A DNA stretch of 64,000 nucleotides from an uncultured Chloroflexia bacterium (GTDB lineage Bacteria; Chloroflexota; Limnocylindria; QHBO01): assembly GCA_963816215.1 (NCBI GenBank), contig CAWFKB010000003.1, forward strand, positions 6,839-70,838. The letters are read 5' to 3'. Within the stretch, counting starts at the first letter, position 1, and each line of letters begins with the position of its first letter. Of this stretch, positions 12,823-54,460 are shown piece by piece. The notes under the pieces are model-generated. The model had not been told where the DNA came from. It did no database searches and worked only from the letters and a program-made list of their open reading frames with translations. A program made the position numbers and the translations under genes.

Positions 12823-12899
12823 GATGGACCGATCGTATCGGACGGCGCTCGCTGTTCCCCGGATTGCATCCGCGATTGACCCCGGCCCGCCACGGTCGG

Positions 12900-12918
12900 C
12901 ATACTACCCCGGAGTATG
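12900..12918. promoter_or_regulatory. Candidate CsoR/RcnR-type operator (CATACT-ACCCCGG-AGTATG) over the RBS and first ATG of the CsoR-family gene
   Basis: AT-rich inverted repeat flanking a G/C tract, matching the TACT-G6-N-AGTA architecture of RcnR/CsoR type-1 operators. Confidence 0.5.
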
Positions 12919-13263
12919 GACATGACCGATCCCGCCCACTTTCGCCACAGCTACTCCCGCGACCGCAAGGAGCTCCTGAACCGCCTGCGGCGGATCGAGG
13001 GCCAGGCGCGCGGCATCCAGCGGCTGGTCGACAACGAGGCGTACTGCCTCGACATCCTCCAGCAGGTGGAGGCCATGACGGCCGCCGCCGACCAGGTGGC
13101 GATGCTCGTCCTCGAGGACCACATCGACGGCTGCCTGACCCACGCGATCGACTCGGGGCAGGGGGAGCCGTACGTCCGCGAGGTGATGCAGGTGGTCCGC
13201 AGGGCGATGGGCCGGCCGGCGGCACGGCGAAGCCGACGGGGCGCCGGGGCGCCCACGGGGTAG
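12916..13263 (+). CDS. CsoR/RcnR-family metal-sensing transcriptional repressor
   Basis: 115 aa. Fingerprint residues Y-C (NEAYCLD) and H-x3-C (HIDGC), plus an N-terminal His. Confidence 0.8.
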   Translation: MDMTDPAHFRHSYSRDRKELLNRLRRIEGQARGIQRLVDNEAYCLDILQQVEAMTAAADQVAMLVLEDHIDGCLTHAIDSGQGEPYVREVMQVVRRAMGRPAARRSRRGAGAPTG

Positions 13264-13343
13264 CAGACGGGAGTGCCGCAGGGGGGAACCACGGCACTCC
13301 CGGTCCCGACTATACGAGCGACGGTCAAGCCGACCGACCGGGT

Positions 13344-16175
13344 CTACTCCCCGAACATGGTGAGCTGTTTGCCGCCGCGCTCGACCAGTGGATCGAGGCC
13401 GATCATCGGCTCCAACCACTCCATCCGGGCCCCGTCGCGGGCCACCAGGGCTTCCAGATGCGGCCACTTCAGGACGTGCCAGTTCTGGCGTTCCATCTCG
13501 GCCCGCAGCCACGGGGAGCGGGCGATCTTCAGGCGCAGCAGCTCCGTTCGTTCGGCGGGAATGACGAGGAAGCGGGCCTGCTGTTCCGAGGTCGGGATCT
13601 GCGCGCCGCGGCGCAGGACGGCGTCACCGATCATGGCCGTCCACTCCACCTCGAACAGGTAGCTGGACCGATTCCGGACGTACCACAGGGCGTCCACCGC
13701 GCCGAGCACCTCGGCCGGAGCGCGAATCACGAGCGGGAGGTAGGTACGCCGCTCGTCTTCCTTCAGCAGGTCGGCCAGGGCGCCGTGGCGCCACGGGCGA
13801 TCCTGCTCCCGGCGGCTGACCCAGGCCCGGAGCCCGAGCCGGTGCCCGAAGTCCACGATCCCGGCAATGATCCTGGTGTGGTCCGCCATCCGGGCCGCGA
13901 GATCCTCCTCGGAGCGGATGTGGCCCCGCTCCCCCACCGTCCCGTAGGCGCCGAGGCAGGCACGAACGAGCTCTTCGTCGGGCGAGGACGTGCCCGGGAA
14001 GAGGGCGTAGATGCGATCCAGGAAGGCCGATTCGTCGAGGCGACCGGCCGTCGTGAGCAACGAGAACGTGGCCCATTCCACCCGATCGGCGATCGTGCCC
14101 TCTCCCAGGGTGGGCTCGCGCAGCCACCATGACGGACGTGGCCCGTCGTCCCCCACCCGAACCAGGCTCGGATGGTCGTCGCGCCACAGCTCCTCCCGGA
14201 GCAGGACGGCCAGCAGGGCTGGCCCGCCGCGGTCGACGCGCCCGGCTTGCTCGTCCGCCGCTTCCCCTGGGGCGTCGCCTGCCTCGCCGTCCGATCGCGC
14301 CTGGACGAGGCGGCGCAGCAGCCCGGTACGCTCGAGCTCGATCAATGCCGCGCATGCGATCCGCGCCAGGCCGGCGGGCTCGCCTCGCTCCCGTAGGAGG
14401 TTCACCGCGGCCCGCTCGATCGCGCCGGCGAGCTCGGGATAGGTGAGATGCCCGCCCTCGGCGCCCAGGCGGAGGGGCTTGGGGCGGACGGCGTCGCGCA
14501 GGCGATCTTCGGCCGAGGCGCGCCGGAAATGGAGGGTCACCCCATCCCCCACCCTCCCCGACTCTCGGGGAATGGCGTGCACGAGCTCCAGCTCCGCAGC
14601 CGCGGCAGCCAGGGCCACGGCCAGAACGCGGTCCGGGTCGTCGCCCTCGAGCAGGACCGTGCACCAGCCACCCGGTTTCAGGGCGCCTGTCGCCGAAGCG
14701 AGCGCGTGCCGGAAGGCGGTCACCTCCGCCCCCTCGGAACGGGCCGAGCCGCCGCCGAACAGCGGCTCCAGGCGCAGGGTCTCGGCCGCTTCGCGCCCCA
14801 TCAGCCAGGCGGTGGCCAGGTACTCGAAGCTCAGCTCGTCGACGCTTTCGGGAGGCGGTGGCGAACCGATGACCAGGTCCACGCTCTCGGGCGGCAGGTA
14901 CTGACCCACGACCGCGGGCCGGCATCGGATCCACAGCAGGTTGGCCGCGCTCATCCCGCCCAGCTCGTCCAGATCGGCGGCGAAGCGCACGGGACGGCGG
15001 TCACGGCCCAGGGCCGCGAGCGCTGTGCGCACGTCCTGATAGGCGACCTCGAACAGGCGCCACACGTTCACCTCGCGGTGATGACGGGACGCGGGCTGGC
15101 GGACGTGGCCGCCGCTGATGCGCAGCGACGCGACGCGGCCGGGATACCCGTTCAGACGGCTGGCGGGGAGCAGGCAGCCGGCCAGCGCAAGGCGGAACAC
15201 GGCGGCCAGGGGCTGGTCATGGAACTCCGCATCGATCTTGTTGGCGATCGTCTGGAGGGCGTACAGGTTGCGCGAGGTGTACAGGTCCAGCACCTCATCC
15301 ACCACGTCGCCCCGCTCGTCCAGCACGGGAAACCGGTCGCGCAGCTGCTGGTAGGCCAGGCCCTGGCGGACATCGGTCCCCACTGGGGCGGGAAGCGGCG
15401 TGGGCCGCACGGTTGACGCGTAGCGGGGACCCTCCGAGGCGGTGAGCGACATCGGCGGATCGGGCGCCCGCGCGGGTGGCGGTGGAGGCCCGCCGGGCTC
15501 GCCCAGCGGGGCCAACGGCGGGGGCTCGGTCGCTCCGGCGTCCCCGATCAGCCCCATTGGGGCGGGCGGCAGATCCTCGTCTGCATCGGCTGCCGGTTCG
15601 ACACCGGCCGCTGGCTCGGCCGGTGGAGGCGGTTCCAGCCCCAGCTTGGCGTAGTCCGATTCGTCCACCGGCGCCACGCGCTCGTCAGGACCGCCCAGGG
15701 CCACGTCACACGCGGCGCATCGGTACACCTTGCGGCCGGGCGCATCGCCGTCCCGGGGCCAGATGAACTCCTCCGCCATGACCGGGCGGCTGCAGACCGG
15801 GCAGCGGGACGCGTAGAGCTCCTCGATGTGCTGACGGAGCGGGATGTCCACCCGACGCGAGGAGGCGAGCTGCGCAAACGCCGCATCGACGGACGCCACC
15901 TCGGGGGCCAGGAGGAAGGCCTGGGCCGCCATCTGGGCGAACGGGCTGGCCTCGGCGGCCACGACCCGCATGCCGTGCGCGACCGCGCGACGGGCTGTCC
16001 AACCGGTGCCGGCCCATGGGTCGAGGATCGTGTCGCCCGACGTGGCGAACGACGCCAGCTCGGCGTCGAGGACGTTATCGGCCGGGGAGGGAAAGTAGCG
16101 CTCGAGCAGGGCGAGTCCCGGTAGGCGCCTCGGAAGGACGACGTGGTCGAGTCTCTTCCGTTCGGCCAAGGTCAT
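13344..16175 (-). CDS. Large (943 aa) N4/N6-methyltransferase-like protein with a Zn-ribbon insert, Pro-rich linker, degenerate catalytic motif IV and an unknown C-terminal domain
   Basis: N-terminus ILDPWAGTGWTARRAVAHGMRVVAAEASPFA resembles the SAM-binding end of PF01555 (DPFAGSGTT). CPVCS...CAAC ribbon. Motif-IV-like VDLVIGSPPPPE lacks the aromatic residue. GC3 checked at about 90% in the C-terminal part. Confidence 0.7.
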   Translation of the reverse strand: MTLAERKRLDHVVLPRRLPGLALLERYFPSPADNVLDAELASFATSGDTILDPWAGTGWTARRAVAHGMRVVAAEASPFAQMAAQAFLLAPEVASVDAAFAQLASSRRVDIPLRQHIEELYASRCPVCSRPVMAEEFIWPRDGDAPGRKVYRCAACDVALGGPDERVAPVDESDYAKLGLEPPPPAEPAAGVEPAADADEDLPPAPMGLIGDAGATEPPPLAPLGEPGGPPPPPARAPDPPMSLTASEGPRYASTVRPTPLPAPVGTDVRQGLAYQQLRDRFPVLDERGDVVDEVLDLYTSRNLYALQTIANKIDAEFHDQPLAAVFRLALAGCLLPASRLNGYPGRVASLRISGGHVRQPASRHHREVNVWRLFEVAYQDVRTALAALGRDRRPVRFAADLDELGGMSAANLLWIRCRPAVVGQYLPPESVDLVIGSPPPPESVDELSFEYLATAWLMGREAAETLRLEPLFGGGSARSEGAEVTAFRHALASATGALKPGGWCTVLLEGDDPDRVLAVALAAAAAELELVHAIPRESGRVGDGVTLHFRRASAEDRLRDAVRPKPLRLGAEGGHLTYPELAGAIERAAVNLLRERGEPAGLARIACAALIELERTGLLRRLVQARSDGEAGDAPGEAADEQAGRVDRGGPALLAVLLREELWRDDHPSLVRVGDDGPRPSWWLREPTLGEGTIADRVEWATFSLLTTAGRLDESAFLDRIYALFPGTSSPDEELVRACLGAYGTVGERGHIRSEEDLAARMADHTRIIAGIVDFGHRLGLRAWVSRREQDRPWRHGALADLLKEDERRTYLPLVIRAPAEVLGAVDALWYVRNRSSYLFEVEWTAMIGDAVLRRGAQIPTSEQQARFLVIPAERTELLRLKIARSPWLRAEMERQNWHVLKWPHLEALVARDGARMEWLEPMIGLDPLVERGGKQLTMFGE

Positions 16176-16180
16176 CGCGG

Positions 16181-17008
16181 CTACGTCTCTTCGAGCAGTT
16201 CCTCTTCTTCATCGGGCTCGCTCGAGAGCTCCGGAAGGCTGGTGTCGAGCTCCTCGACCTCTTCCGGCTCTTCTTCGGACTCCTCCGACTCGTCGTCGTC
16301 ATCGTAGCGGAGGGCACTGCCCTTCATATACGGTCGAACGTCACTCGTACGGCCCGCCGCCGCGCCCGGGAACGACACCCGACCGAAGTTCGCCGGGTGG
16401 GCGAACACCTCGCGGATGATGAGTCGCAGATCGTCGTTCGTGACGGTGGTCAGGGCCGCCTCGTACCGATTTCCCTTGGCCATGAGGTCGAGCAACCGGT
16501 TCGCGACCCGCGGTTCCACCTGGCCCACCTTGATCCCGCGGACCTTGGCCTCGAGCTCGCCATCGGCCGCGTGGAGCTCGATCGCATCGCCGGCGGAGAG
16601 CGGCGCCAGCTGCCTGGCCGGCGCGAGGTTGATGAGTCGGGCGCTGCCGGTCTTGCCCATCTCCTCGATGAACAGCGCGGCGGGGGCACGGGCCGCATGC
16701 CGGTCGCCGCGGGTCGTGCCCTCGGACGCGATCAGGGCCTGAAGCCGCTCCACGTTCCGCTCGGCAATCCGATTCGTGCGCTCCCGCTCGAGGGCGGACT
16801 GGTAGGCCTCCAGCGCTTCGGGCAGGCGGTCGAGCTCAGCCAGGGCCTTACCGAGCCGGTTGTAGGCGTCCACGTCACCGCCCAGCTCCACGATCTGGCG
16901 GTTGGTGTCGACCGATTCCTCCCACTCGCCGCGCGCAGCCTGGGCAATCGCAATTTCGGCGAGCTGGCGGCGCTGGCGGGTGGTGGCGTCAGGATCCCCG
17001 GCGGTCAT
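16181..17008 (-). CDS. TPR-repeat protein with an uncharacterised middle domain and a C-terminal polyacidic tail
   Basis: Start at MTAGDPD. Tail DDDDESEESEEEPEEVEELDTSLPELSSEPDEEEELLEET. Its stop lies 5 nt upstream of the downstream 943-aa gene start. Confidence 0.65.
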   Translation of the reverse strand: MTAGDPDATTRQRRQLAEIAIAQAARGEWEESVDTNRQIVELGGDVDAYNRLGKALAELDRLPEALEAYQSALERERTNRIAERNVERLQALIASEGTTRGDRHAARAPAALFIEEMGKTGSARLINLAPARQLAPLSAGDAIELHAADGELEAKVRGIKVGQVEPRVANRLLDLMAKGNRYEAALTTVTNDDLRLIIREVFAHPANFGRVSFPGAAAGRTSDVRPYMKGSALRYDDDDESEESEEEPEEVEELDTSLPELSSEPDEEEELLEET

Positions 17009-17127
17009 GGGCGAGCGACTCTCCCCGGAAATTGATGAAAAAGGCGAAACGGCGCCGCGTTCGACCAGCGGAAACCGTCGGAGGGCGACACTTTCTATCA
17101 CCGACCCCCCGGAGTGTCAACGCGATT

Positions 17128-17916
17128 TCAGCTCCGGCTCAGGAAGAGCGCCACGAAAGCGCCGATGACGGCCAGCGAGCCGTACTCCAGGGCGACTGCC
17201 CGATTGGGTACGCCGGACTCGAGCGCGTCGGCCGCTCCGCTCCAGGCGTGGAAGGTCAGGGCGATCAGCGCGGAGCCCACTGGTTGGGGCAGGTCGAGCA
17301 GGATCAGGGCGGTCGCAACCTGGAGCACGACCAGCAGGTGCAGCGCCCCATGGCCTACGGCCGGCACGCCGACCGCTCCCCGGGCCTCCGCGGCCCGCAG
17401 GCAGGGCACCGCGACCAGGATGGCCAGCAGCACGATCTGGAGCAGCCACAGCTCCGACGGAATCACTCCTGCCAGGCCGACCGCGGCGCAGAACACGGTG
17501 AAGACCAGCAGCAGGTCGAGCGACAGGCGATTGGTGGGGGCCGTGGGGCCCATCCGCTCGGTGTAGAGGGTCCACCACAGGAAGGCCCAGGCCACGGGCG
17601 CGGCCAATGGACCGATGCCGGGCGGCAGCAGCCGCCCGGCCAGGGTGATCGATACCGTGGCCACGGCCAGGATCGCGTAACGCGCGTACCCCACCGACGC
17701 GCGAGCCGCGCCCAGGAGGGCGGCCATGCCCAGGCCGGCCAGGGCCAGCTCGAGGGCCAGCACGCCGGCCAGGGCCACCATGTCGACGACCCAGCCCGCT
17801 GCGACGAGCGCGGCGAGAATCAGGGGCAGGGCGACGGGTCCCGCACGCTTCACGGCCCGCGCGCCCCGCACGCGTCCCGCGCGGAAGAGTCGCCGGCGAT
17901 CCGCGACCGCGCTCAT
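17128..17916 (-). CDS. Hypothetical polytopic membrane protein
   Basis: 6-7 predicted TM helices. Start overlaps the PolX stop by 4 nt. Confidence 0.55.
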   Translation of the reverse strand: MSAVADRRRLFRAGRVRGARAVKRAGPVALPLILAALVAAGWVVDMVALAGVLALELALAGLGMAALLGAARASVGYARYAILAVATVSITLAGRLLPPGIGPLAAPVAWAFLWWTLYTERMGPTAPTNRLSLDLLLVFTVFCAAVGLAGVIPSELWLLQIVLLAILVAVPCLRAAEARGAVGVPAVGHGALHLLVVLQVATALILLDLPQPVGSALIALTFHAWSGAADALESGVPNRAVALEYGSLAVIGAFVALFLSRS

Positions 17917-19661
17917 CGCAGCAGCTCCCCGGCGCTGCGAGTGGTGGCCACCTGCTCGGCCGCGAGGCCTGCCCGGCGGGCGACGCCGACCGCGTAATCG
18001 AGGTATCCCAGCTCCTCGGTTCGGTGCGCATCGCTCGACAGCGTGAGCCGCACGCCGGCCCGGGCTGCGTCCCGCGCCAGCCGTTCGTCCAGGTCGAGGC
18101 GCGGGCTGCCGTTGATCTCGAGCAGGGTGCCGGTGCGAGCGGCGGCCTCGAACAATTCGGGCCAGTGGAATGAGACGGGCTCGCGCCGGTTCACGATCCG
18201 CCCGGTGGGGTGGGCAATGATGTCCACGTGGGGGTTCTCGATCGCGGCGAGGGCCCGCTTGGTGAGCTGATCGACCGGCTGGCTGCGAGCGGCGTGGATG
18301 CTGGCCACCACCACGTCGAAGGTGGCGAGCAGCTCGTCGGGATAGTCGAGGGTCGCATCGGCCAGGATTTCCATCTCGGTACCGTGCAGGATGCGGAACG
18401 GGCTGAGCTCCCCGTTGAGGCGGTCGATCTCTGCCCGTTGCTCGGCCACCCGCTCCGGCGACAGCCCGCGCGCCACGCCCAGCGACGGGGAGTGATCGGT
18501 CAGGACCATGTACTCCAGGCCCGATGCGCGGGCGGCGCCGGCCATGGTCTCGATGTTGTCCACGCCATCGGTCCAGTTCGAGTGGGTATGGGTGTCACCC
18601 CGGATGTCGCCCCGCTCGACGAGGTGCGGCAGCGTGCCCGCCGCGGCGGCGGCCACCTCGCCCTCGCCCTCGCGCAGCTCGGGCGGCACCCACGCCATGT
18701 CCAGACGGGCGTAGACGTCTTCCTCGGTCGCGGCCAGGAGCAGCTCTCCGGTCTCCACGTCCTTGAACCCCTTCTCGCTCAGGGATAGCCCCCGGTCCTG
18801 GGCCCGGGCGCGGAGCTCGACGTTGTGCTCCTTGCTGCCGGTGAAGTGGACGAGATGCGAGCCCCAGGCCTCGGGACGGCACAGCATGAGGTCCACCTGC
18901 CGGTCCCCGTCGGCTCGCAGCACCACGCTGGCCTTGTCGGTCCCCGCGTTGAGCACCCGATCGACGTCCGGTAGCTGCTCGAATACCCTGATCAGCTCCG
19001 CTGGATCGTCGCAGGCGGCCAGGACGTCGAGGTCGCCGATCGTAGCCCGCCGGCGCCGCAGCGACCCGGCGGCCGCGATCTGATGAATACCCGGCACCCG
19101 GCCCAGGCCGGCCAGGATCTCGGCGGCCAGCCGGTCGGCATCGTGGAGGAGAAGCCGGCCGGATTGCTGTTCCAGGCGTCCGATCCCGGCCAGGATGTTC
19201 TGCTCGGTCCGAGCCGACATGCCGCTTACCTGGCGCACGCGCCCGGTTTCCGCCGCGGCTCGCAGCTCGTCGATGGAGGTGATGCCCAGCTCCACGTGAA
19301 GCTGGCGCGCGGTCCGCGGCCCAACTCCGCTGATGCGGAGCACGTCCAGGAGGCCGGGTGGGATCTGCTCTCGAAGGCGCTGGTGGTACTCGAGCTTCCC
19401 GGTCGTGGCCAGCTCGGTCAGCCGCGCACCGATGGCCGGGCCCACGCCGGCGATTTTCGGTGTGTGACCGTCCACCACGAGCGGAGCCAAGTCCACGGGA
19501 TAGCGCTCGATGGCATCGGCCACCCGTCGGTAGGCGACCGCCTTGTAGGGAACTTCGTCGAGGAGATCGAGGAGGTCGCCCACTTCCCGGAACGTTGCCG
19601 CCAGCTCGGCGTTGCTCAACCCGCCGCGGGCAGAACGAGTGACGGGGCGGGGTCGTGGCAT
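17913..19661 (-). CDS. polX: DNA polymerase X family protein with a C-terminal PHP (phosphoesterase) domain
   Basis: HhH motifs and the Pol-beta-like nucleotidyltransferase GSLRRRRATIGDLDVL. PHP metal ligands GDTHTHS and LTDH. Confidence 0.9.
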   Translation of the reverse strand: MPRPRPVTRSARGGLSNAELAATFREVGDLLDLLDEVPYKAVAYRRVADAIERYPVDLAPLVVDGHTPKIAGVGPAIGARLTELATTGKLEYHQRLREQIPPGLLDVLRISGVGPRTARQLHVELGITSIDELRAAAETGRVRQVSGMSARTEQNILAGIGRLEQQSGRLLLHDADRLAAEILAGLGRVPGIHQIAAAGSLRRRRATIGDLDVLAACDDPAELIRVFEQLPDVDRVLNAGTDKASVVLRADGDRQVDLMLCRPEAWGSHLVHFTGSKEHNVELRARAQDRGLSLSEKGFKDVETGELLLAATEEDVYARLDMAWVPPELREGEGEVAAAAAGTLPHLVERGDIRGDTHTHSNWTDGVDNIETMAGAARASGLEYMVLTDHSPSLGVARGLSPERVAEQRAEIDRLNGELSPFRILHGTEMEILADATLDYPDELLATFDVVVASIHAARSQPVDQLTKRALAAIENPHVDIIAHPTGRIVNRREPVSFHWPELFEAAARTGTLLEINGSPRLDLDERLARDAARAGVRLTLSSDAHRTEELGYLDYAVGVARRAGLAAEQVATTRSAGELLR

Positions 19662-22333: not shown

Positions 22334-23335
22334 TCAGACGCCGATGGGGTGCCAGACGGTTTTGATCTCGACGAACTCACCGATGAGGTACGGCGACTGC
22401 GCGTCGGCCGACAGCCAGTCGTAGCCGTTCAGGCCACCGTTCGGCGGCCGCGAGAAGCGTTTCACGTTCTCGGTGGCCGCTTCCTCAACTGCGGTAACGC
22501 TGGCGAGGTCCAGCCCGAAGCCATCGAGGGCGTTGACGTCCATGTGGGACGCGAGGTGCGGCACGAGCTCGCGCCGCAGGCCGGTGATCACGTTCACGAC
22601 GCCGCCCGGAACGTCAGAGGTGGCGACGACCTCGGCAAGGGTGATGGCCGGCAGCGGGCGAGACTCACTTGCCAGGACGACCGCGGCGTTACCCGACACG
22701 ATGACCGGCGCCAGGCGGCTCACGAGCCCGAGCAACGACGAGTCCTCGGCAGCCACGATCCCCACCACGCCGGTGGGTTCGGGGATGGAGAAGTTGAAGT
22801 ACGCCCCGCCGACGGGGTTCACGTTACCGAGGATCTGCGGGAACTTGTCGGCCCAGCCCGCGTACCAGACCCATCGGTCGATCGCGGCATCCACCAGGCG
22901 CCGCGCACGCTGGAGGCCCACCCCTTCGGCTGCGCGGACCTCGGACACGAACTGGTCGCGGCGCCCTTCCATGAGCTCCGCGATGCGATAGAGGATCTGG
23001 CTCCGGTTGGCCGCCGTCTTGTCGGCCCATTCGGGCTGGACCTTGCGCGCCGCCCGGACCGCGTCACGGATGTCCTTGCGGGTGCCGCGGCAGGCATTGG
23101 CCAGCATCGCGCCCTGCGCATCGCGTACCACGTACGCGCGCCCTGACTCGGTGCGCGGGAACGCCCCGCCAATGAACAGCTTGTATGTCTTTCGCACGCC
23201 CAGGCGCTCCCCCGCTGCACTCGCGCCGTCGCGCAGGGCGAGGGGAGCCGGGGAACGCGTGTCCAGGACGGAGGCGCGGGCGCGCGGGCGCGTCGTGGTG
23301 GGGCGGCGAGCGGTGGAGCGACGCGGAACCGCCAT
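22334..23335 (-). CDS. Aldehyde-dehydrogenase-like protein with an internal deletion of the catalytic domain (non-catalytic paralog?)
   Basis: N-terminal ALDH regions YKLFIGG, VVGIVAAEDSS and GVVNVITG up to ATENVKRF. It then joins directly to the extreme C-terminal ALDH tail PPNGGLNGY...EFVEIKTVW. ELGGK and the catalytic Cys region are absent. Confidence 0.6.
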   Translation of the reverse strand: MAVPRRSTARRPTTTRPRARASVLDTRSPAPLALRDGASAAGERLGVRKTYKLFIGGAFPRTESGRAYVVRDAQGAMLANACRGTRKDIRDAVRAARKVQPEWADKTAANRSQILYRIAELMEGRRDQFVSEVRAAEGVGLQRARRLVDAAIDRWVWYAGWADKFPQILGNVNPVGGAYFNFSIPEPTGVVGIVAAEDSSLLGLVSRLAPVIVSGNAAVVLASESRPLPAITLAEVVATSDVPGGVVNVITGLRRELVPHLASHMDVNALDGFGLDLASVTAVEEAATENVKRFSRPPNGGLNGYDWLSADAQSPYLIGEFVEIKTVWHPIGV

Positions 23336-23338
23336 TGG

Positions 23339-24850
23339 TCAGTTCGCCCCGTTCATGCGTGTATAAGCCGCCAACCCGTGGAGCCCGCCCTCGCGGCCGT
23401 AGCCGGACTCCTTGTAGCCGCCGAACGGGGAGGTGGGATCGAATCGGTTGAAGGTGTTGGCCCATACCACGCCGGCCTTCATGGCCCCGACCATCTTGAA
23501 GATCCGGCTGCCCTTCTCGGTCCACACCCCGGCCGACAGGCCATACGGGGTGTTGTTCGCCTTCTCGACGGCCTCTTCGGGCGTTCGGAAGGTGAGGACG
23601 GAGAGCACGGGGCCGAAGATCTCCTCCTGCGCGATCCGATGGCTCTGGCTCACGCCCGTGAACAGGGTGGGCCGGAAGAAGAAGCCCTTGTCCGGCAGGA
23701 CGCAGTCGGGCTGGAAGATCTCGGCCCCTTCCGCGATCCCCGATTCGACGAGCTCAGCGATCTTGGCCAGCTGGCCGGCGGAGTTGATGGCGCCGACATC
23801 GGTGTTCTTGTCGAGCGGGTCGCCAACACGCAAGGTCGAGAGGCGGTCCTTCAGCTTGTCGAGGAGCGGCTCATAGACCGATTCCTGCACGAACAGGCGC
23901 GACCCGGCGCAGCACACCTCGCCCTGGTTGAAGTAAATGCCGTTGATGATGCCCTCGATTGCCTGGTCGAGTGGCGCATCGTCGAAGACGATGTTCGCCG
24001 CCTTCCCGCCCAGCTCCAGGGTCACCTTCTTGTGGGTGCCCGCCACGGCGCGGGCGATGAGCTTGCCCACCGCCGTGGAGCCGGTGAAGGCCACCTTGTC
24101 GACCTGCGGGTGGCGGACGAGCTCCATCCCGATGTCGCCGGGCCCGGTGATGATGTTCACGACCCCGGGAGGCAGCTCCGCCTGGCGGACGACATCGGCG
24201 AATAAGTAGGCGGTAAGCGGCGTGGTCGAGGCTGGCTTGAGGATCACCGTGTTGCCGCAGGCCAGGGCCGGGGCGATCTTCCAGGCCAGCATGAGGAGCG
24301 GGAAGTTCCACGGGATGATCTGTGCGGCCACGCCCAGCGAGGTGGGCCTGCGATTCGGGAACGCGTACTCGAGCTTGTCGGCCCAGCCCGCGTAATAGAA
24401 GAAGTGGGCCGCTGCGAGTGGCACGTCCACGTCGCGGCTTTCCTTGATGGGCTTGCCGCTGTTCATGGTCTCGACGACCGCGAACTCGCGCGAGCGCTCC
24501 TGCATGATCCGTGCGATGCGGTAGAGGTATTTCGCGCGCTCGCTGCCCGGCATGCGTGACCAGACCGTGTCGTGCGCACGGCGGGCGGCGGTGACGGCTC
24601 GGTTGACGTCCGCCTTGCTGGCCCGGGCCACCTTCGAGAGCACTTCCTCGGTCGCGGGGTTGATGACGTCGAAGGTCGCCTTCGGACGCGCTGGCGTGAA
24701 CTGGTTGTCGATGAACAGCCCGTATTCGCGCTCGATCCGGATGTGATCGGTGGACTCCGGAGCGGCGGCATACTCCCAGGGCACTCCGCGCGCGCCCATG
24801 CCCCACGAGGCAGCGGCGGGCTTGGCGTCCGGCTTTCGGGTGAGTGCCAT
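23339..24850 (-). CDS. Aldehyde dehydrogenase (NAD(P)+), full length
   Basis: ELGGKAAN and FNQGEVCCAGSR catalytic motifs. 503 aa. Confidence 0.9.
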   Translation of the reverse strand: MALTRKPDAKPAAASWGMGARGVPWEYAAAPESTDHIRIEREYGLFIDNQFTPARPKATFDVINPATEEVLSKVARASKADVNRAVTAARRAHDTVWSRMPGSERAKYLYRIARIMQERSREFAVVETMNSGKPIKESRDVDVPLAAAHFFYYAGWADKLEYAFPNRRPTSLGVAAQIIPWNFPLLMLAWKIAPALACGNTVILKPASTTPLTAYLFADVVRQAELPPGVVNIITGPGDIGMELVRHPQVDKVAFTGSTAVGKLIARAVAGTHKKVTLELGGKAANIVFDDAPLDQAIEGIINGIYFNQGEVCCAGSRLFVQESVYEPLLDKLKDRLSTLRVGDPLDKNTDVGAINSAGQLAKIAELVESGIAEGAEIFQPDCVLPDKGFFFRPTLFTGVSQSHRIAQEEIFGPVLSVLTFRTPEEAVEKANNTPYGLSAGVWTEKGSRIFKMVGAMKAGVVWANTFNRFDPTSPFGGYKESGYGREGGLHGLAAYTRMNGAN

Positions 24851-50655: not shown

Positions 50656-51278
50656 CTGCTCTCGGCGTCCTGTTCGGACACGCTCCGCTCGTCGCCCTGC
50701 AGCTCGCGGGCAGCCGCGATTTCGCCCTCGGCGCCGCTCCCCCGCTCCAGCAGCGTGACGGCAATCCCGGCCAGGCGTCGCGACGCGGTCACGTTTCCCA
50801 GGTCCAGTTCGGCACGGCCCATCCCCGTCGCGGCAAGGCCCTCCTCGCGCTCCGCACCGAGGTCACGGGCTTCGCTGATCGCCTCCGCATAGTAGCGCCG
50901 GGAACTCGCCGGATCGCCGCCGGCCACTCGGAGATCCCCGATCCGCCGAGCGGCCCGGGTGGCCTGCAACGGGAGGTCACCGCGCTCGAAGTGCCACATC
51001 GCCCGATGCGCCCACAGGTCGGCGGCCCACCATGCCTCGACCTCGATGGCCGCCTCCGCCGCGGTCATGGCCGCCGCGCCCGCCCGGCGGTGATCCCCTG
51101 CCCGCTCGGACTCAAGATACGGGGCGGCCAGCTCGGTCCGCCGCAAGGCGACCGGCAGCTCCGGAAGGGTCGCAATCGCCGGCGACGGCTTTCCGGAAAT
51201 ACCGCGGATCCAAACGGTGAATCGTGTCCATTTCCCGGGCGGTGGCGGGCCCCAGTGGACGAGCGTGGTTCGGGTCAC
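50652..51278 (-). CDS. Hypothetical protein (helical, TPR-like), GTGA-coupled to metK
   Basis: GTG start overlaps the metK stop. No recognisable motif. Confidence 0.4.
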
Positions 51279-52483
51279 GCGCGGACCGCGGCCAGACCGG
51301 CTGCGGAGCGCAGCTCGTCGGCGATGTCGGTCCGCTCCCAGCTCAGGTCGAGGTCAGATCGGCCGAAGTGGCCGTACGCTGCCGTCGGGCGGTAGATCGG
51401 TCGTCGGAGGTCCAGTCGCTCGATGATCGCCCCCGGCCGAAGGTCGACCGATCGGTCGATGGCTCCGGCGATAACCGTGTCGGGCACGATGCTCGTGCCA
51501 AAGGTGTCGACATTGAGGGCCAGCGGTCGGGCCACCCCGATCGCGTAGGCAACCTGGATCTCGCAGCGGCGGGCGAGCCCGGAGGCGACCACGTTCTTGG
51601 CCACCCAGCGCGCGGCGTAGGCCCCGCTGCGGTCGACCTTGGTCGGATCCTTGCCCGAGAAGCTGCCGCCCCCGTGGCGGGCCATTCCGCCGTACGTGTC
51701 CACGATGATCTTTCGCCCGCTGAGTCCCGAGTCCCCCGCCGGGCCACCGAGCACGAACCGGCCGCTCGGATTCACGAGCACGCGAACCTCCCTCCCGTTG
51801 CCATGCGCGAGGGGCACGATCGGGGCGATCACGGACTCGATGACCGCGCCGGTCAGCTCCGCCAGGCCAACGTCCGGATGATGCTGGGTGCTGATCAGGA
51901 CGGTATGGACGCCCTCTGGCCGGCGATCCGGGCCGTATGCGACGGTGACCTGGCTCTTGCCATCGGGTCGGAGGAACGACAGCTCGCCGCTGCGCCGGAC
52001 CTCCGCCAGGCGTCGGCACAGCTGGTGTGCAACGTGGACGGGCATGGGCATGAATTCGGGCGTTTCATCGGTCGCGTAGCCGAACATCATTCCCTGGTCG
52101 CCCGCCCCCAGCTCGTCCGTGCGCTCCGCGGAGCCGTCGCGGTAGGCGTGATCCACGCCCTGCGCGATGTCCGGCGACTGGCCCTTGATCAGGTTGGTGA
52201 CGACCAGGCTGTCGGCGTCAAATCCAAGCTCGGGGTCGTCATAGCCGATGTCGCGGACGGTTCGACGGACGATCGACTCCACGTCCGGCTGATGGGGGCT
52301 GGTGAGCTCGCCGAGCACGATAACGGTGCCCGTGGTGGTCGCCACTTCCACCGCCACTCGGGCCATGGGGTCCGCGGCAAGCACGTCGTCCAGGACGGCG
52401 TCGGCCACGGCATCGGCAACCTTGTCAGGGTGCCCGGCAGTCACCGATTCCGAGGTGAACAGGTAGCGGAGCTGGTCGTACAC
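51275..52483 (-). CDS. metK: S-adenosylmethionine synthase
   Basis: [20 protein letters not shown], and [23 protein letters not shown]. Confidence 0.95.
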
Positions 52484-53206: not shown

Positions 53207-54460
53207 TCAGGTGCCCGAATGCCAGGAAACGGCGTACTCCGCCTGCTCAGGGGTGAGGTCGTCGATCGCGATCCCCATGGTGATCAGCTTCAGCCGGGCG
53301 ACGTCGCGGTCGATGTCGTCGGGGATGGAGTAGACCTGCGGGCTGAGCTCGGTCGCATGGTCGTGGAGCCACTTGAGTCCGAGGGCCTGGTTGGCGAAGC
53401 TCATGTCCATGACCAGCGCCGGATGACCCTCGGCCGCGCCGAGGTTCACAAGGCGCCCATCGGCCAGAACGTAGATGCGCCGGCCGTCGGCCATCAGGTA
53501 TTCGGTCGTGAACGGGCGGACCTCGCGCTGTCCGGTTGACTGCTCCGCGAGGGCACCCAGCTCGAACTCATCGTTGAAATGGCCGGCGTTGGCCAGGATC
53601 GCCCCATCGGGCATGAGCGGGAAGTGCGCCCTGCCCCACACGTTCAGGTTCCCGGTGGCCGTTATGAACATATGGCATGTCGCGGCCGCGGTGGCGGCAT
53701 TCGCGACTCGGAAGCCGTCCATGGCGGCCTCGATGGCACGTATCGGATCGACCTCGACCACGGTCACGATGGCGCCCATCCCGGCCGCCCGTGACGCGAT
53801 GCCCCGCCCGACCCATCCGTAGCCGCCCACCGCAACCGGCTTGCCGGCGAGCAGCACGTTCGTCGCCCGCAAGATGCCGTCGATCGCGCTCTGGCCGGTC
53901 CCGTAGCGGTTGTCGAACAGATGCTTGGTGAGCGCCTCGTTCACACCGACGACGGGGAATTTCAGGGCGCCGTCGGCCGCCATGGCCCGCAGGCGAATGA
54001 CGCCGGTCGTGGTCTCCTCGGTCCCTCCCACCACTTCGGGGAGCAGCTCGGTGCGGTTGGTATGGAGCTCGCTCACGAGGTCGGCCCCGTCGTCCATGGT
54101 GACGTGGGGATGGTGGTCCAGCGCCTGGCCGATGTGCCGGTAGTAGGAGTCGCGGTCCTCGCCCTTGATGGCGAACACGGGGATCTGGTGGTGGACCGAC
54201 AGGGACGCAGCGACGTCATCCTGGGTCGAGAGCGGATTCGACGAGCAGAGCACCACGTCCGCCCCGCCGGCGGCGAGGGTTCGCACGAGGTTCGCGGTCT
54301 CCGCGGTCACGTGGAGGCACGCGCTGATTCGCCAACCAGCCAGGGGCTGTTCGGCGGCGAATCGGTCCCGTATGGCAGCCAGGACGGGCATCTGGCGATC
54401 GGCCCAGTCGATACGCAGGGCGCCAGCATCGGCAAGGCCAGGGTCGCGGATGTCGCTCAC
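53207..54460 (-). CDS. ahcY: Adenosylhomocysteinase
   Basis: SAHH motifs [17 protein letters not shown] (NAD-binding) and HFDNE-like HFNDEF. Confidence 0.9.

Follow-up and report, generated by a model that had tools for sequence, protein, structure and literature searches.

A 64,000-nt stretch of DNA from an uncultured Chloroflexia bacterium (Limnocylindria; QHBO01), taken from assembly GCA_963816215.1 (contig CAWFKB010000003.1, positions 6,839-70,838) and called here the window, carries on its minus strand a gene for a 943-amino-acid protein (13344..16175). We interpret this protein as an exapted restriction-modification fusion, dead for methylation, that would now act as a DNA-binding, possibly nucleolytic housekeeping factor. 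The probability of this composite reading is in our estimate about 60%, and its uncertainty is mostly in the present-day function, less in the ancestry or the loss of catalysis. Because the catalytic motif has been lost and the gene is nonetheless under strong selection, the protein probably has another DNA-related role now, and it is best described as a pseudo-enzyme that arose by exaptation of a defence-type restriction-modification fusion and became fixed in a bacterial phylum as a core gene. Its parts, given with window coordinates and in order along the protein, are the following:

13344..16175, minus strand: whole open reading frame (ORF), 943 amino acids, ATG start; putative methylation-dead PglXI-like methyltransferase / helix-turn-helix (HTH) / restriction-endonuclease-like fusion
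15906..16175, minus strand: methyltransferase N-lobe (residues 1-90), to which the profile matches to TTHA0409, M.RsrI, MboIIA and CcrM map
15696..15815, minus strand: four-cysteine zinc ribbon (residues 121-160; C125, C128, C153, C156), at the start of the insert
15372..15638, minus strand: disordered linker rich in Pro, Ala and Glu (residues 180-268), confined to the window's clade
14946..15371, minus strand: TRD-like helical/beta part of the insert (residues 269-410), with motifs YT(S/P)RNLYAL (299-307) and ExNVW (368-372)
14847..14882, minus strand: motif IV position, VDLVIGSPPPPE (residues 432-443), where the translation has SPPP in place of the catalytic (D/N/S)PP(Y/F)
14451..14945, minus strand: methyltransferase C-lobe (residues 411-575), Rossmann strands 3-7, from Foldseek and the strand/helix alternation of the model
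13911..14450, minus strand: helical HTH-like region (residues 576-755); the model shows three bundles of helices, with a beta-hairpin wing on the second
13401..13910, minus strand: restriction-endonuclease-like (NmeDI_C) domain (residues 756-925), with D765-H766, D828, E842-V-E844 and R876

The gene, its methyltransferase fold and motif IV

An earlier note on this DNA had called the 943-residue ORF at 13344-16175 an orphan methyltransferase-like protein. We confirmed the ORF, add that it lies on the minus strand, and found every sequence feature which that note had listed at the residues given for it. The protein is, however, no orphan: a word-indexed search returned more than 468 homologues, of which the best 120 are full-length, 66-93% identical, all named hypothetical, and derived from soil or freshwater metagenomes and from "Candidatus Limnocylindria" or other Chloroflexota metagenome-assembled genomes (MAGs), and an exhaustive profile search yielded 1,605 cluster representatives at E<=1e-3, as for a gene conserved across a lineage. 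Its G+C content at third codon positions (GC3) is 0.87, typical for real genes of this 69% GC window (screened at > 0.85); two ORFs on the opposite strand, 12864-14132 (+) and 14448-15416 (+), failed the same screen and look like shadow ORFs. Compared with a 97%-identical orthologue (L004), the ORF has dN = 0.013, dS = 0.42 and omega = 0.031, the most constrained parts being the N-lobe, the helical insert and the methyltransferase C-lobe (omega <= 0.015); synonymous sites are saturated in deeper comparisons. The gene is thus under strong purifying selection, and this value, together with full-length intact ORFs in 171 species-level genomes (among them the complete 2.09-Mb chromosome L009), rules out a pseudogene.

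Single-sequence scans of the window protein against Pfam, NCBIfam and PADLOC gave nothing beyond weak motif I matches: Pfam N6_N4_Mtase (PF01555) reached E=0.13 and 12.6 bits over residues 43-78, against a gathering threshold of 26.7, and PADLOC Type II methyltransferase models matched weakly. PF01555 was likewise below threshold in 36 of 38 orthologues, with a best E of 0.0019. Family profiles reached further. One built from the 38 orthologues matches M.RsrI at 4e-4, and one built from 84 diverse relatives matches the solved beta-class DNA methyltransferases TTHA0409 (2.3e-11) and M.RsrI (1e-9), in addition to MboIIA, an N4-cytosine methyltransferase, CcrM and the PvuII methyltransferase, each a separate match. 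These matches cover the string ILDPWAGTGWT (residues 50-60), whose motif I is D52-P-W-A-G56-T-G58, and AAEASP (residues 73-78), in which E75 is the acidic residue of motif II; all of 118 orthologues share D52, W54, G56 and G58 and have D or E at position 75. A second, weaker profile stretch lays the family strand VdLvltqpPrl on VHLVVTSPPYW, the motif IV of TTHA0409. With 38 close orthologues as input, AlphaFold2 (AF2) gave a model of low confidence (pLDDT 57) that had no significant fold matches, and the model built from the 84 diverse relatives reached pLDDT 85.6 and pTM 0.84; among PDB structures, Foldseek matched the latter best to class I S-adenosylmethionine (SAM) methyltransferases (Trm11, Bud23, TrmM, CamA and TTHA0409), all at probability 1.00 and with E-values that are modest (~1e-3) because an insert of about 320 residues splits the Rossmann fold. 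The C-lobe, in turn, aligns to the block that follows motif IV in relatives with intact motifs (LW..WL, LKPGGW). Profile and fold evidence together confirm that the fold is that of a class I SAM methyltransferase, of the N6/N4 DNA-methyltransferase type, and bear out both the assignment of the N-terminal motif I to the N4/N6 DNA methylases and the motif order that the earlier note had described (motif I, a long insert, then a degenerate motif IV).

The fate of the catalytic motifs is best seen across the relatives, for which a genome scan supplied the best 80 loci, all Limnocylindria, and for which the taxonomy of the distant groups follows MAG names; identities are relative to the window protein:

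Window's clade, Limnocylindria: 61-97% identity; motif I DPWAGTG; motif IV SPPPPE and variants
Group a, Limnocylindrales: about 36-42% identity; motif I DLHGRGGW; motif IV e.g. QPPQRP, QPPTHW
Group b, Anaerolineae, Dehalococcoidales and other Chloroflexota: 25-31% identity; motif I DPFCQxxx; motif IV SPPR, DPPR, NPPR, APPH, WPPP
Intact relatives: 19-24% identity; motif I DPFCGSG; motif IV TDPPYG or TDPPFG

Group b proteins have 750-870 amino acids and no Pro-rich insert. Among the intact relatives, P0481 and P0482 (787-819 amino acids) share the full-length architecture of the window protein, one of them being named "DNA modification methylase"; shorter intact forms come from Hodarchaeota and other sources, and forms of ~1,260 amino acids (Sphingosinicella, Methylobacterium) combine an HTH domain with two methyltransferase modules.

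In the alignment, S438-P-P-P441 of the window protein falls on the TDPPYG/TDPPFG of intact relatives and on the SPPYW of TTHA0409, and in all 80 Chloroflexota members tabulated the intact TDPP(Y/F)G and DPFCGSG are aligned with SPPPPE or other variants. Across the 118 orthologues, positions 439-443 have entropies of 1.7-2.0 bits, as variable as the disordered linker (mean 1.36 bits), and in the column of the catalytic Y/F the residues are P, D, A, G, N, L or H, with no aromatic in any sequence (0/118). The flanks of this loop are invariant (D433, V435, D446-E447-x-S-F-E-Y-L-A-T-x-W), and the loop itself also appears as SVTDAA, MPSVAG, SLGEAP and others. Because it is unconstrained across orthologues, SPPP is one state of a free loop rather than a conserved variant motif. 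Of the view that SPPP is an m4C-type SPPY/F motif which has lost its aromatic residue, the lost aromatic therefore stands; the m4C resemblance does not, and a relic of an SPPY motif is ruled out. The predicted loss of catalysis is supported by these alignments. The pre-motif is degenerate as well, reading ERYFPSP in the window protein versus HxYxxKxP in intact relatives (HKYWARKP, HSYHTKVP).

We infer from these motifs that the protein no longer methylates DNA. The methyl-transfer machinery would have decayed in the common ancestor of the Chloroflexota copies, with the motif IV aromatic gone in every member, HxYxxKxP lost, and the GxG of motif I lost in most lineages. The invariant motif I glycines and motif II acidic residue of the window's clade suggest that a SAM or nucleotide pocket may persist there. 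An enzyme that still methylates DNA or another substrate through a non-canonical loop, for example with the SFEYLATAW block positioning the target base, would agree with the retention in all 118 orthologues of D52-P-W-A-G-T-G58 and D/E75, as SAM binding requires, and with a methyltransferase core that is among the most constrained parts of the protein. We nevertheless regard continued activity as very improbable: the loop at 439-443 holds no conserved residue and is never aromatic, the sister clades have lost GxG too (DPFCQxxx, DLHGRGGW), the HxYxxKxP of intact enzymes is gone, and, because intact relatives have an equivalent of the SFEY...W block (YFEL..LW..WL) besides their DPPY, that block is not a replacement for motif IV.

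The insert and the C-terminal third

The insert spans approximately residues 90-410 and follows core strand 2. At its start, the CPVC...CAAC zinc ribbon recognized before was located at Cys 125/128/153/156, with beta-strands predicted at 122-152 in the AF2 model; C125, C128 and C153 do not vary among dead and intact relatives, and >= 90% of the sequences also have C156. The disordered Pro/Ala/Glu-rich stretch, also anticipated, was found at about 180-268, of which 197-267 is modelled as disordered (pLDDT <50). In the alignment of relatives this linker is not present in groups a and b or in the intact forms. Within the window's clade it contains invariant short motifs (LPPAPxGL, LGExGxPP and PRYASTVxP; invariant positions L202, P203, A205, P206, G208, L209, G225, E226, S254, T255 and V256). 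The TRD-like part that follows is among the most constrained regions of the protein (dN = 0 versus L004; mean entropy 0.48 bits): in the 84 diverse relatives, both dead and intact, R302 and E368 never change and N370 and W372 hardly do, and the PADLOC PDLC03312 and PglXI models match this region in relatives.

The last 350 residues, previously described as having no assignable family, could be assigned to HTH-like bundles and to a restriction-endonuclease-like (NmeDI_C) domain. Residues 576-755, modelled with pLDDT mostly >85 and containing RGEP (597-600) and WWL (683-685) conserved family-wide, fit the HTH triad of PglXI-type enzymes in the predicted structure. In the domain that follows, which includes the string SYLFEVEW (residues 838-845), the modelled order of helix 759-779, strands 783-786, 829-833 and 837-843, helix 850-859 and strand 866-872 fits the alpha-beta-beta-beta-alpha-beta arrangement of a PD-(D/E)xK core. 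The 118 orthologues all carry H766, D828 and R876, with E or D at position 842, and 114 of them have E at position 844.

The assignment to NmeDI_C comes from precomputed PF27126 annotations, which are found on many relatives, are weak or faint on close orthologues, and are stronger, at E<=1e-5, on P0141 and P0482. The PADLOC model REase_II PDLC03534 (351 positions) matches four of 42 family members, with a best E of 8.7e-5. When the equivalent domain of P0481 was searched by tblastn, it matched 86 plasmid records down to 9e-10; among the 15 plasmid rows listed, six are annotated "type II restriction endonuclease" and the remainder are hypothetical or unannotated. The window protein has in common with these plasmid restriction enzymes the signature H766...G...G...D828-x-x-W831...F-E842-V-E844-x-T846...P873-x-x-R876, and at the level of sequence the domain thereby appears to be related to restriction endonucleases, whose signature it conserves. 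A profile of the C-terminal domain gave no match among PDB sequences, and local Pfam-A holds no family for the ~420-amino-acid plasmid enzymes. Two genes for ~420-amino-acid "type II restriction endonucleases" with the FEVEHTTSIYSG domain were inspected in place: that of the Deinococcus aetherius plasmid pDAETH-3 (L089) lies between heavy-metal ATPase genes with no adjacent methylase, and that of a Magnetospirillum plasmid (L090) adjoins a class I SAM methyltransferase.

Because the acidic signature has been lost from many group b proteins, nuclease chemistry cannot be the function of the whole family, and activity may have been retained in Limnocylindria. The same loss bears on an alternative in which both modules are inactive and the protein is a non-catalytic scaffold or nucleoid-associated DNA binder, its acidic residues serving folding or metal-dependent DNA binding. 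In other classes of Chloroflexota, D...ExE is missing from many relatives that have kept the remainder of the protein, so that the ancestral retained function would have had no need of nuclease chemistry; the canonical lysine is missing; and the clade-specific linker with its invariant motifs, together with a TPR protein encoded next door, suggests protein-protein contacts. What this alternative explains poorly is the near-invariance of the Limnocylindria signature (H766, D828, E842, E844, T846, R876), which is hard to account for without a catalytic or metal-binding role, and we consider a pure scaffold doubtful, at roughly one chance in five.

Ancestry, inheritance and neighbouring genes

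In PADLOC, P0481 and P0482 match PglXI best (~1e-58), followed by DUF1156_MTase and HmaB, and in NCBIfam they match the anti-phage-associated DUF1156 family at 1.4e-16. The PglXI model also matches 20 of 42 dead members (best 1.9e-10), and the window protein itself has no match to PglXI, DUF1156_MTase or HmaB at E<=1; its link to the PglXI/DUF1156-HmaB lineage is a transitive one, apparent through the sequences of intact intermediates. The DUF1156 N-terminal domain (PF06634) was matched at E<=1 neither in the window protein nor in 38 orthologues. An earlier suggestion of DUF1156 thus holds for the lineage, by way of the intact relatives, and fails for the domain itself. Membership in a DUF1156-DUF499 system was rejected, as neither the domain nor the partner genes are present.

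The ancestor, as we reconstruct it, would have been a single-chain enzyme of restriction-modification type, made up of a PglXI/DUF1156-lineage N6/N4 methyltransferase split after strand 2 by a target-recognition insert with a zinc ribbon, of helical HTH-like DNA-binding domains, and of a C-terminal NmeDI_C domain; from their sequences, P0481 and P0482 look like single-chain restriction-modification enzymes. The surroundings of two intact relatives were also inspected. P0482, the closest intact full-length one, lies (L087, a contig of JGI 3300034984) beside genes for heliorhodopsin, UPF0147 and Auto_anti-p27, surroundings that look archaeal and hint that the intact sister group may be archaeal. 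An intact relative of ~1,263 amino acids in Sphingosinicella sp. (L088, SBFF01000012.1) is clustered with two MTaX1-domain proteins, a DEAD/ResIII helicase, an AAA_23/SMC-like ATPase and an HNH protein, in what looks like an uncharacterised methyltransferase-centred defence island.

In a neighbor-joining (NJ) tree, indicative only as it was drawn from 743 well-occupied columns without support values, all dead forms fall in one clade that mirrors taxonomy, with Limnocylindria (the window's clade plus group a) sister to the other Chloroflexota. One such taxonomy-like clade suggests a single ancient loss followed by vertical descent, and the dead forms, restricted to this Chloroflexota clade, appear to be vertically inherited. 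After the loss, the protein would have been retained and passed on vertically to become the strongly constrained, single-copy chromosomal gene seen today. Copies with 65-70% identity are found in MAGs labelled Steroidobacteraceae, Binatia, Zixibacteria and Dormibacteraeota (L046, L050, L054, L057, L082; P0070, P0022); the five loci among them (L046 to L082) show the gene order of Limnocylindria, and the off-lineage copies are probably mis-binned or mislabelled contigs.

The gene lies at the end of a co-directional array whose other members are, from the nearest outwards:

16181..17101, minus strand: TPR protein gene (Pfam TPR_1/TPR_2), directly upstream, its stop 5 nt before the ATG of the target
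17128..17916, minus strand: gene for a 262-amino-acid polytopic membrane protein, between the PolX and TPR genes and overlapping the PolX stop by 4 nt
17913..19661, minus strand: PolX (pol beta-like plus PHP), first gene of the array; NCBIfam NF006375 at 2e-144; Pfam HHH_8, thumb and PHP

By tblastn over 83 orthologous loci, the order PolX, (membrane protein), TPR protein, target recurs in every locus with enough upstream DNA; the upstream position of PolX is conserved, and the TPR gene is directly upstream of the target in all orthologous loci that have upstream DNA. The TPR protein ends in an extremely acidic tail (DDDDESEESEEEPEEVEELD...EEEELLEET), and the invariant proline motifs of the linker (LPPAPxGL, PRYASTVxP) could be its ligands. 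The membrane protein has no Pfam or NCBIfam match and diverges much faster than its neighbours, being found by tblastn in 44 of 88 loci. On the downstream side a convergent gene encodes a CsoR-type repressor, with a DUF255 thioredoxin and LytR farther on. In the sister order Limnocylindrales, PolX and TPR genes are still within 8 kb of the target; in one such genome (L085, a 2.85-Mb contig) an opposite-strand MoxR-type AAA/DUF58/DUF4129 operon stands between the TPR gene and the target, so that the array is broken. The target is surrounded by unrelated housekeeping genes at two loci of group b.

Genes for a separate restriction, DUF499, PglZ or helicase partner were not found near the target, and the rest of the window is likewise housekeeping (aconitase, PGI, PGM, MetK, AdoHcy hydrolase, FabF and a GGDEF-EAL protein), with nothing related to defence. 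Both the neighbourhood and the scan of the window thus agree with the earlier observation that no partner restriction or DUF499-type gene is nearby. These findings bear on the possibility that the protein is a stand-alone defence nuclease, type IV-like or BREX-related, in which the dead methyltransferase would be a DNA reader guiding the nuclease to foreign DNA. The nearest intact relatives do belong to defence-type lineages (PglXI, DUF1156/HmaB, and the Sphingosinicella methyltransferase beside MTaX1, helicase and AAA genes), and the nuclease signature is conserved in the window's clade. However, a whole class has the gene as a single, syntenic, vertically inherited copy, which is present in a 2.09-Mb genome and sits among housekeeping genes, whereas defence genes are typically patchy and located in variable islands; the loci examined contain no BrxC, PglZ, DUF499 or helicase partner; and conservation of 61-97% across the class is unlike that of fast-evolving specificity modules. 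A defence role today is in our view quite unlikely.

Two further observations concern the window itself. The genes for MetK (51275-52483, minus) and S-adenosylhomocysteine (SAH) hydrolase (53207-54460, minus) are ~35-40 kb from the target, with no evidence of linkage; they are of note only in view of the SAM or SAH binding that the protein may have retained. A 333-amino-acid ORF (22334-23335, minus) comprises only the N-terminal half of the aldehyde dehydrogenase family and lies directly downstream of a full-length member (23339-24850, minus); L001 has a 330-amino-acid counterpart, and the short form seems to be conserved rather than a fresh pseudogene.

Present role and comparison with known systems

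Under the reading that we prefer, an exapted fusion that no longer methylates, the protein would bind DNA through its zinc-ribbon insert and HTH domains, the window's clade may bind SAM or SAH as a ligand, and DNA cutting is possible given a nuclease-type signature that is complete in that clade. The role would be a housekeeping one, possibly tied to PolX-dependent repair, and not self/non-self restriction.

Several points weigh against this reading. The case for lost methylation is built on motifs, and the invariance of motif I (DPWAGTG) and of the motif II acidic residue in the window's clade is unexpected for a purely structural relic, leaving room for SAM binding or unorthodox catalysis. 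On the nuclease side, the window protein has no significant hidden Markov model (HMM) match to any restriction-enzyme model, E-x-E stands in place of (D/E)-x-K with its canonical lysine (BamHI likewise uses D...ExE), and many group b or Anaerolineae-type relatives have FVLLSTVA or similar instead of the acidic signature. As to repair, the linkage to PolX is confined to Limnocylindria and could be plain synteny, and the intervening membrane-protein gene has no evident role with DNA.

A more specific version of the preferred reading would make the protein a genome-maintenance factor derived from an early-captured restriction-modification fusion, namely a new, defence-derived type of repair endonuclease working with the co-transcribed PolX. 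Here the dead methyltransferase would bind SAM or SAH as a regulator, or flip and inspect bases, a BamHI-like (D...ExE) nuclease would be steered to particular DNA lesions or structures, and the protein would be tethered to the TPR protein via the clade-specific proline-rich motifs. We offer this version as a speculation and consider it unlikely.

Eukaryotes offer well-known cases of catalytically dead methyltransferase homologues that were retained for another task (DNMT3L, METTL14), and to our knowledge such homologues have rarely been documented as core bacterial genes. In the present case, a defence-type methyltransferase-nuclease fusion appears to have lost methylation once and then to have descended vertically in several classes of a phylum that is important in soil and fresh water, with selection matching that on housekeeping genes. 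An active nuclease would make the protein a restriction-like enzyme without protective methylation, which raises the questions of what it cuts and how the host survives it. There is also a warning for annotation: automatic pipelines either leave these proteins as hypothetical or would name them DNA methylases, and both labels are wrong. In the literature we found no relevant description of an inactive-methyltransferase/nuclease protein in bacteria, or of this gene in Limnocylindria.

The closest described architecture is that of the PglXI and BR methyltransferases, which have an insert of ~250 residues between core strands 2 and 3 with a four-cysteine zinc finger at its apex, carry three C-terminal HTH-like domains, and occur in type 3 BREX and in DUF499-centred (Hma) systems (10.1101/2025.10.09.681413). 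Like PglXI/BrxXI and the DUF1156 (HmaB, BR) enzymes, the window protein has a Rossmann core in which motif I precedes motif IV, a long insert following core strand 2 that includes a four-cysteine zinc finger, and, as modelled, C-terminal helical HTH-like domains. Unlike them, it has neither (D/N/S)PP(Y/F) nor the DUF1156 N-terminal domain, its locus has no BrxC, PglZ, BrxHII, DUF499 or helicase neighbours, it has an additional C-terminal restriction-endonuclease-like domain, and it is the product of a core, vertically inherited gene rather than of a mobile defence gene.

With the beta-class PF01555 methyltransferases (TTHA0409, M.RsrI, M.MboIIA, CcrM), the protein shares profile homology at motifs I/II and the motif IV strand, as well as the fold; it differs from them in its alpha-like order I...IV, its ~320-residue insert and its degenerate catalytic tetrapeptide, and its single-sequence Pfam score (12.6 bits) is far under the 26.7 of the family threshold. 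With R.NmeDI, an experimentally characterised restriction enzyme (PMC2095814), and with enzymes of its type, it has in common the signature H..G..G..D-x-x-W..F-E-V-E-x-T..P-x-x-R and the alpha-beta-beta-beta-alpha-beta order, although here the domain is the tail of a 943-residue protein with a dead methyltransferase, and its HMM support is weak or faint. The combination of the two modules also differs from that of known fusions. Type IIC/IIG single-chain enzymes such as MmeI and BpuSI unite methyltransferase and nuclease in one polypeptide, with the nuclease N-terminal and the methyltransferase of the gamma class and active, whereas in the window protein the nuclease-like domain is C-terminal and the methyltransferase, as judged from its motifs, dead.

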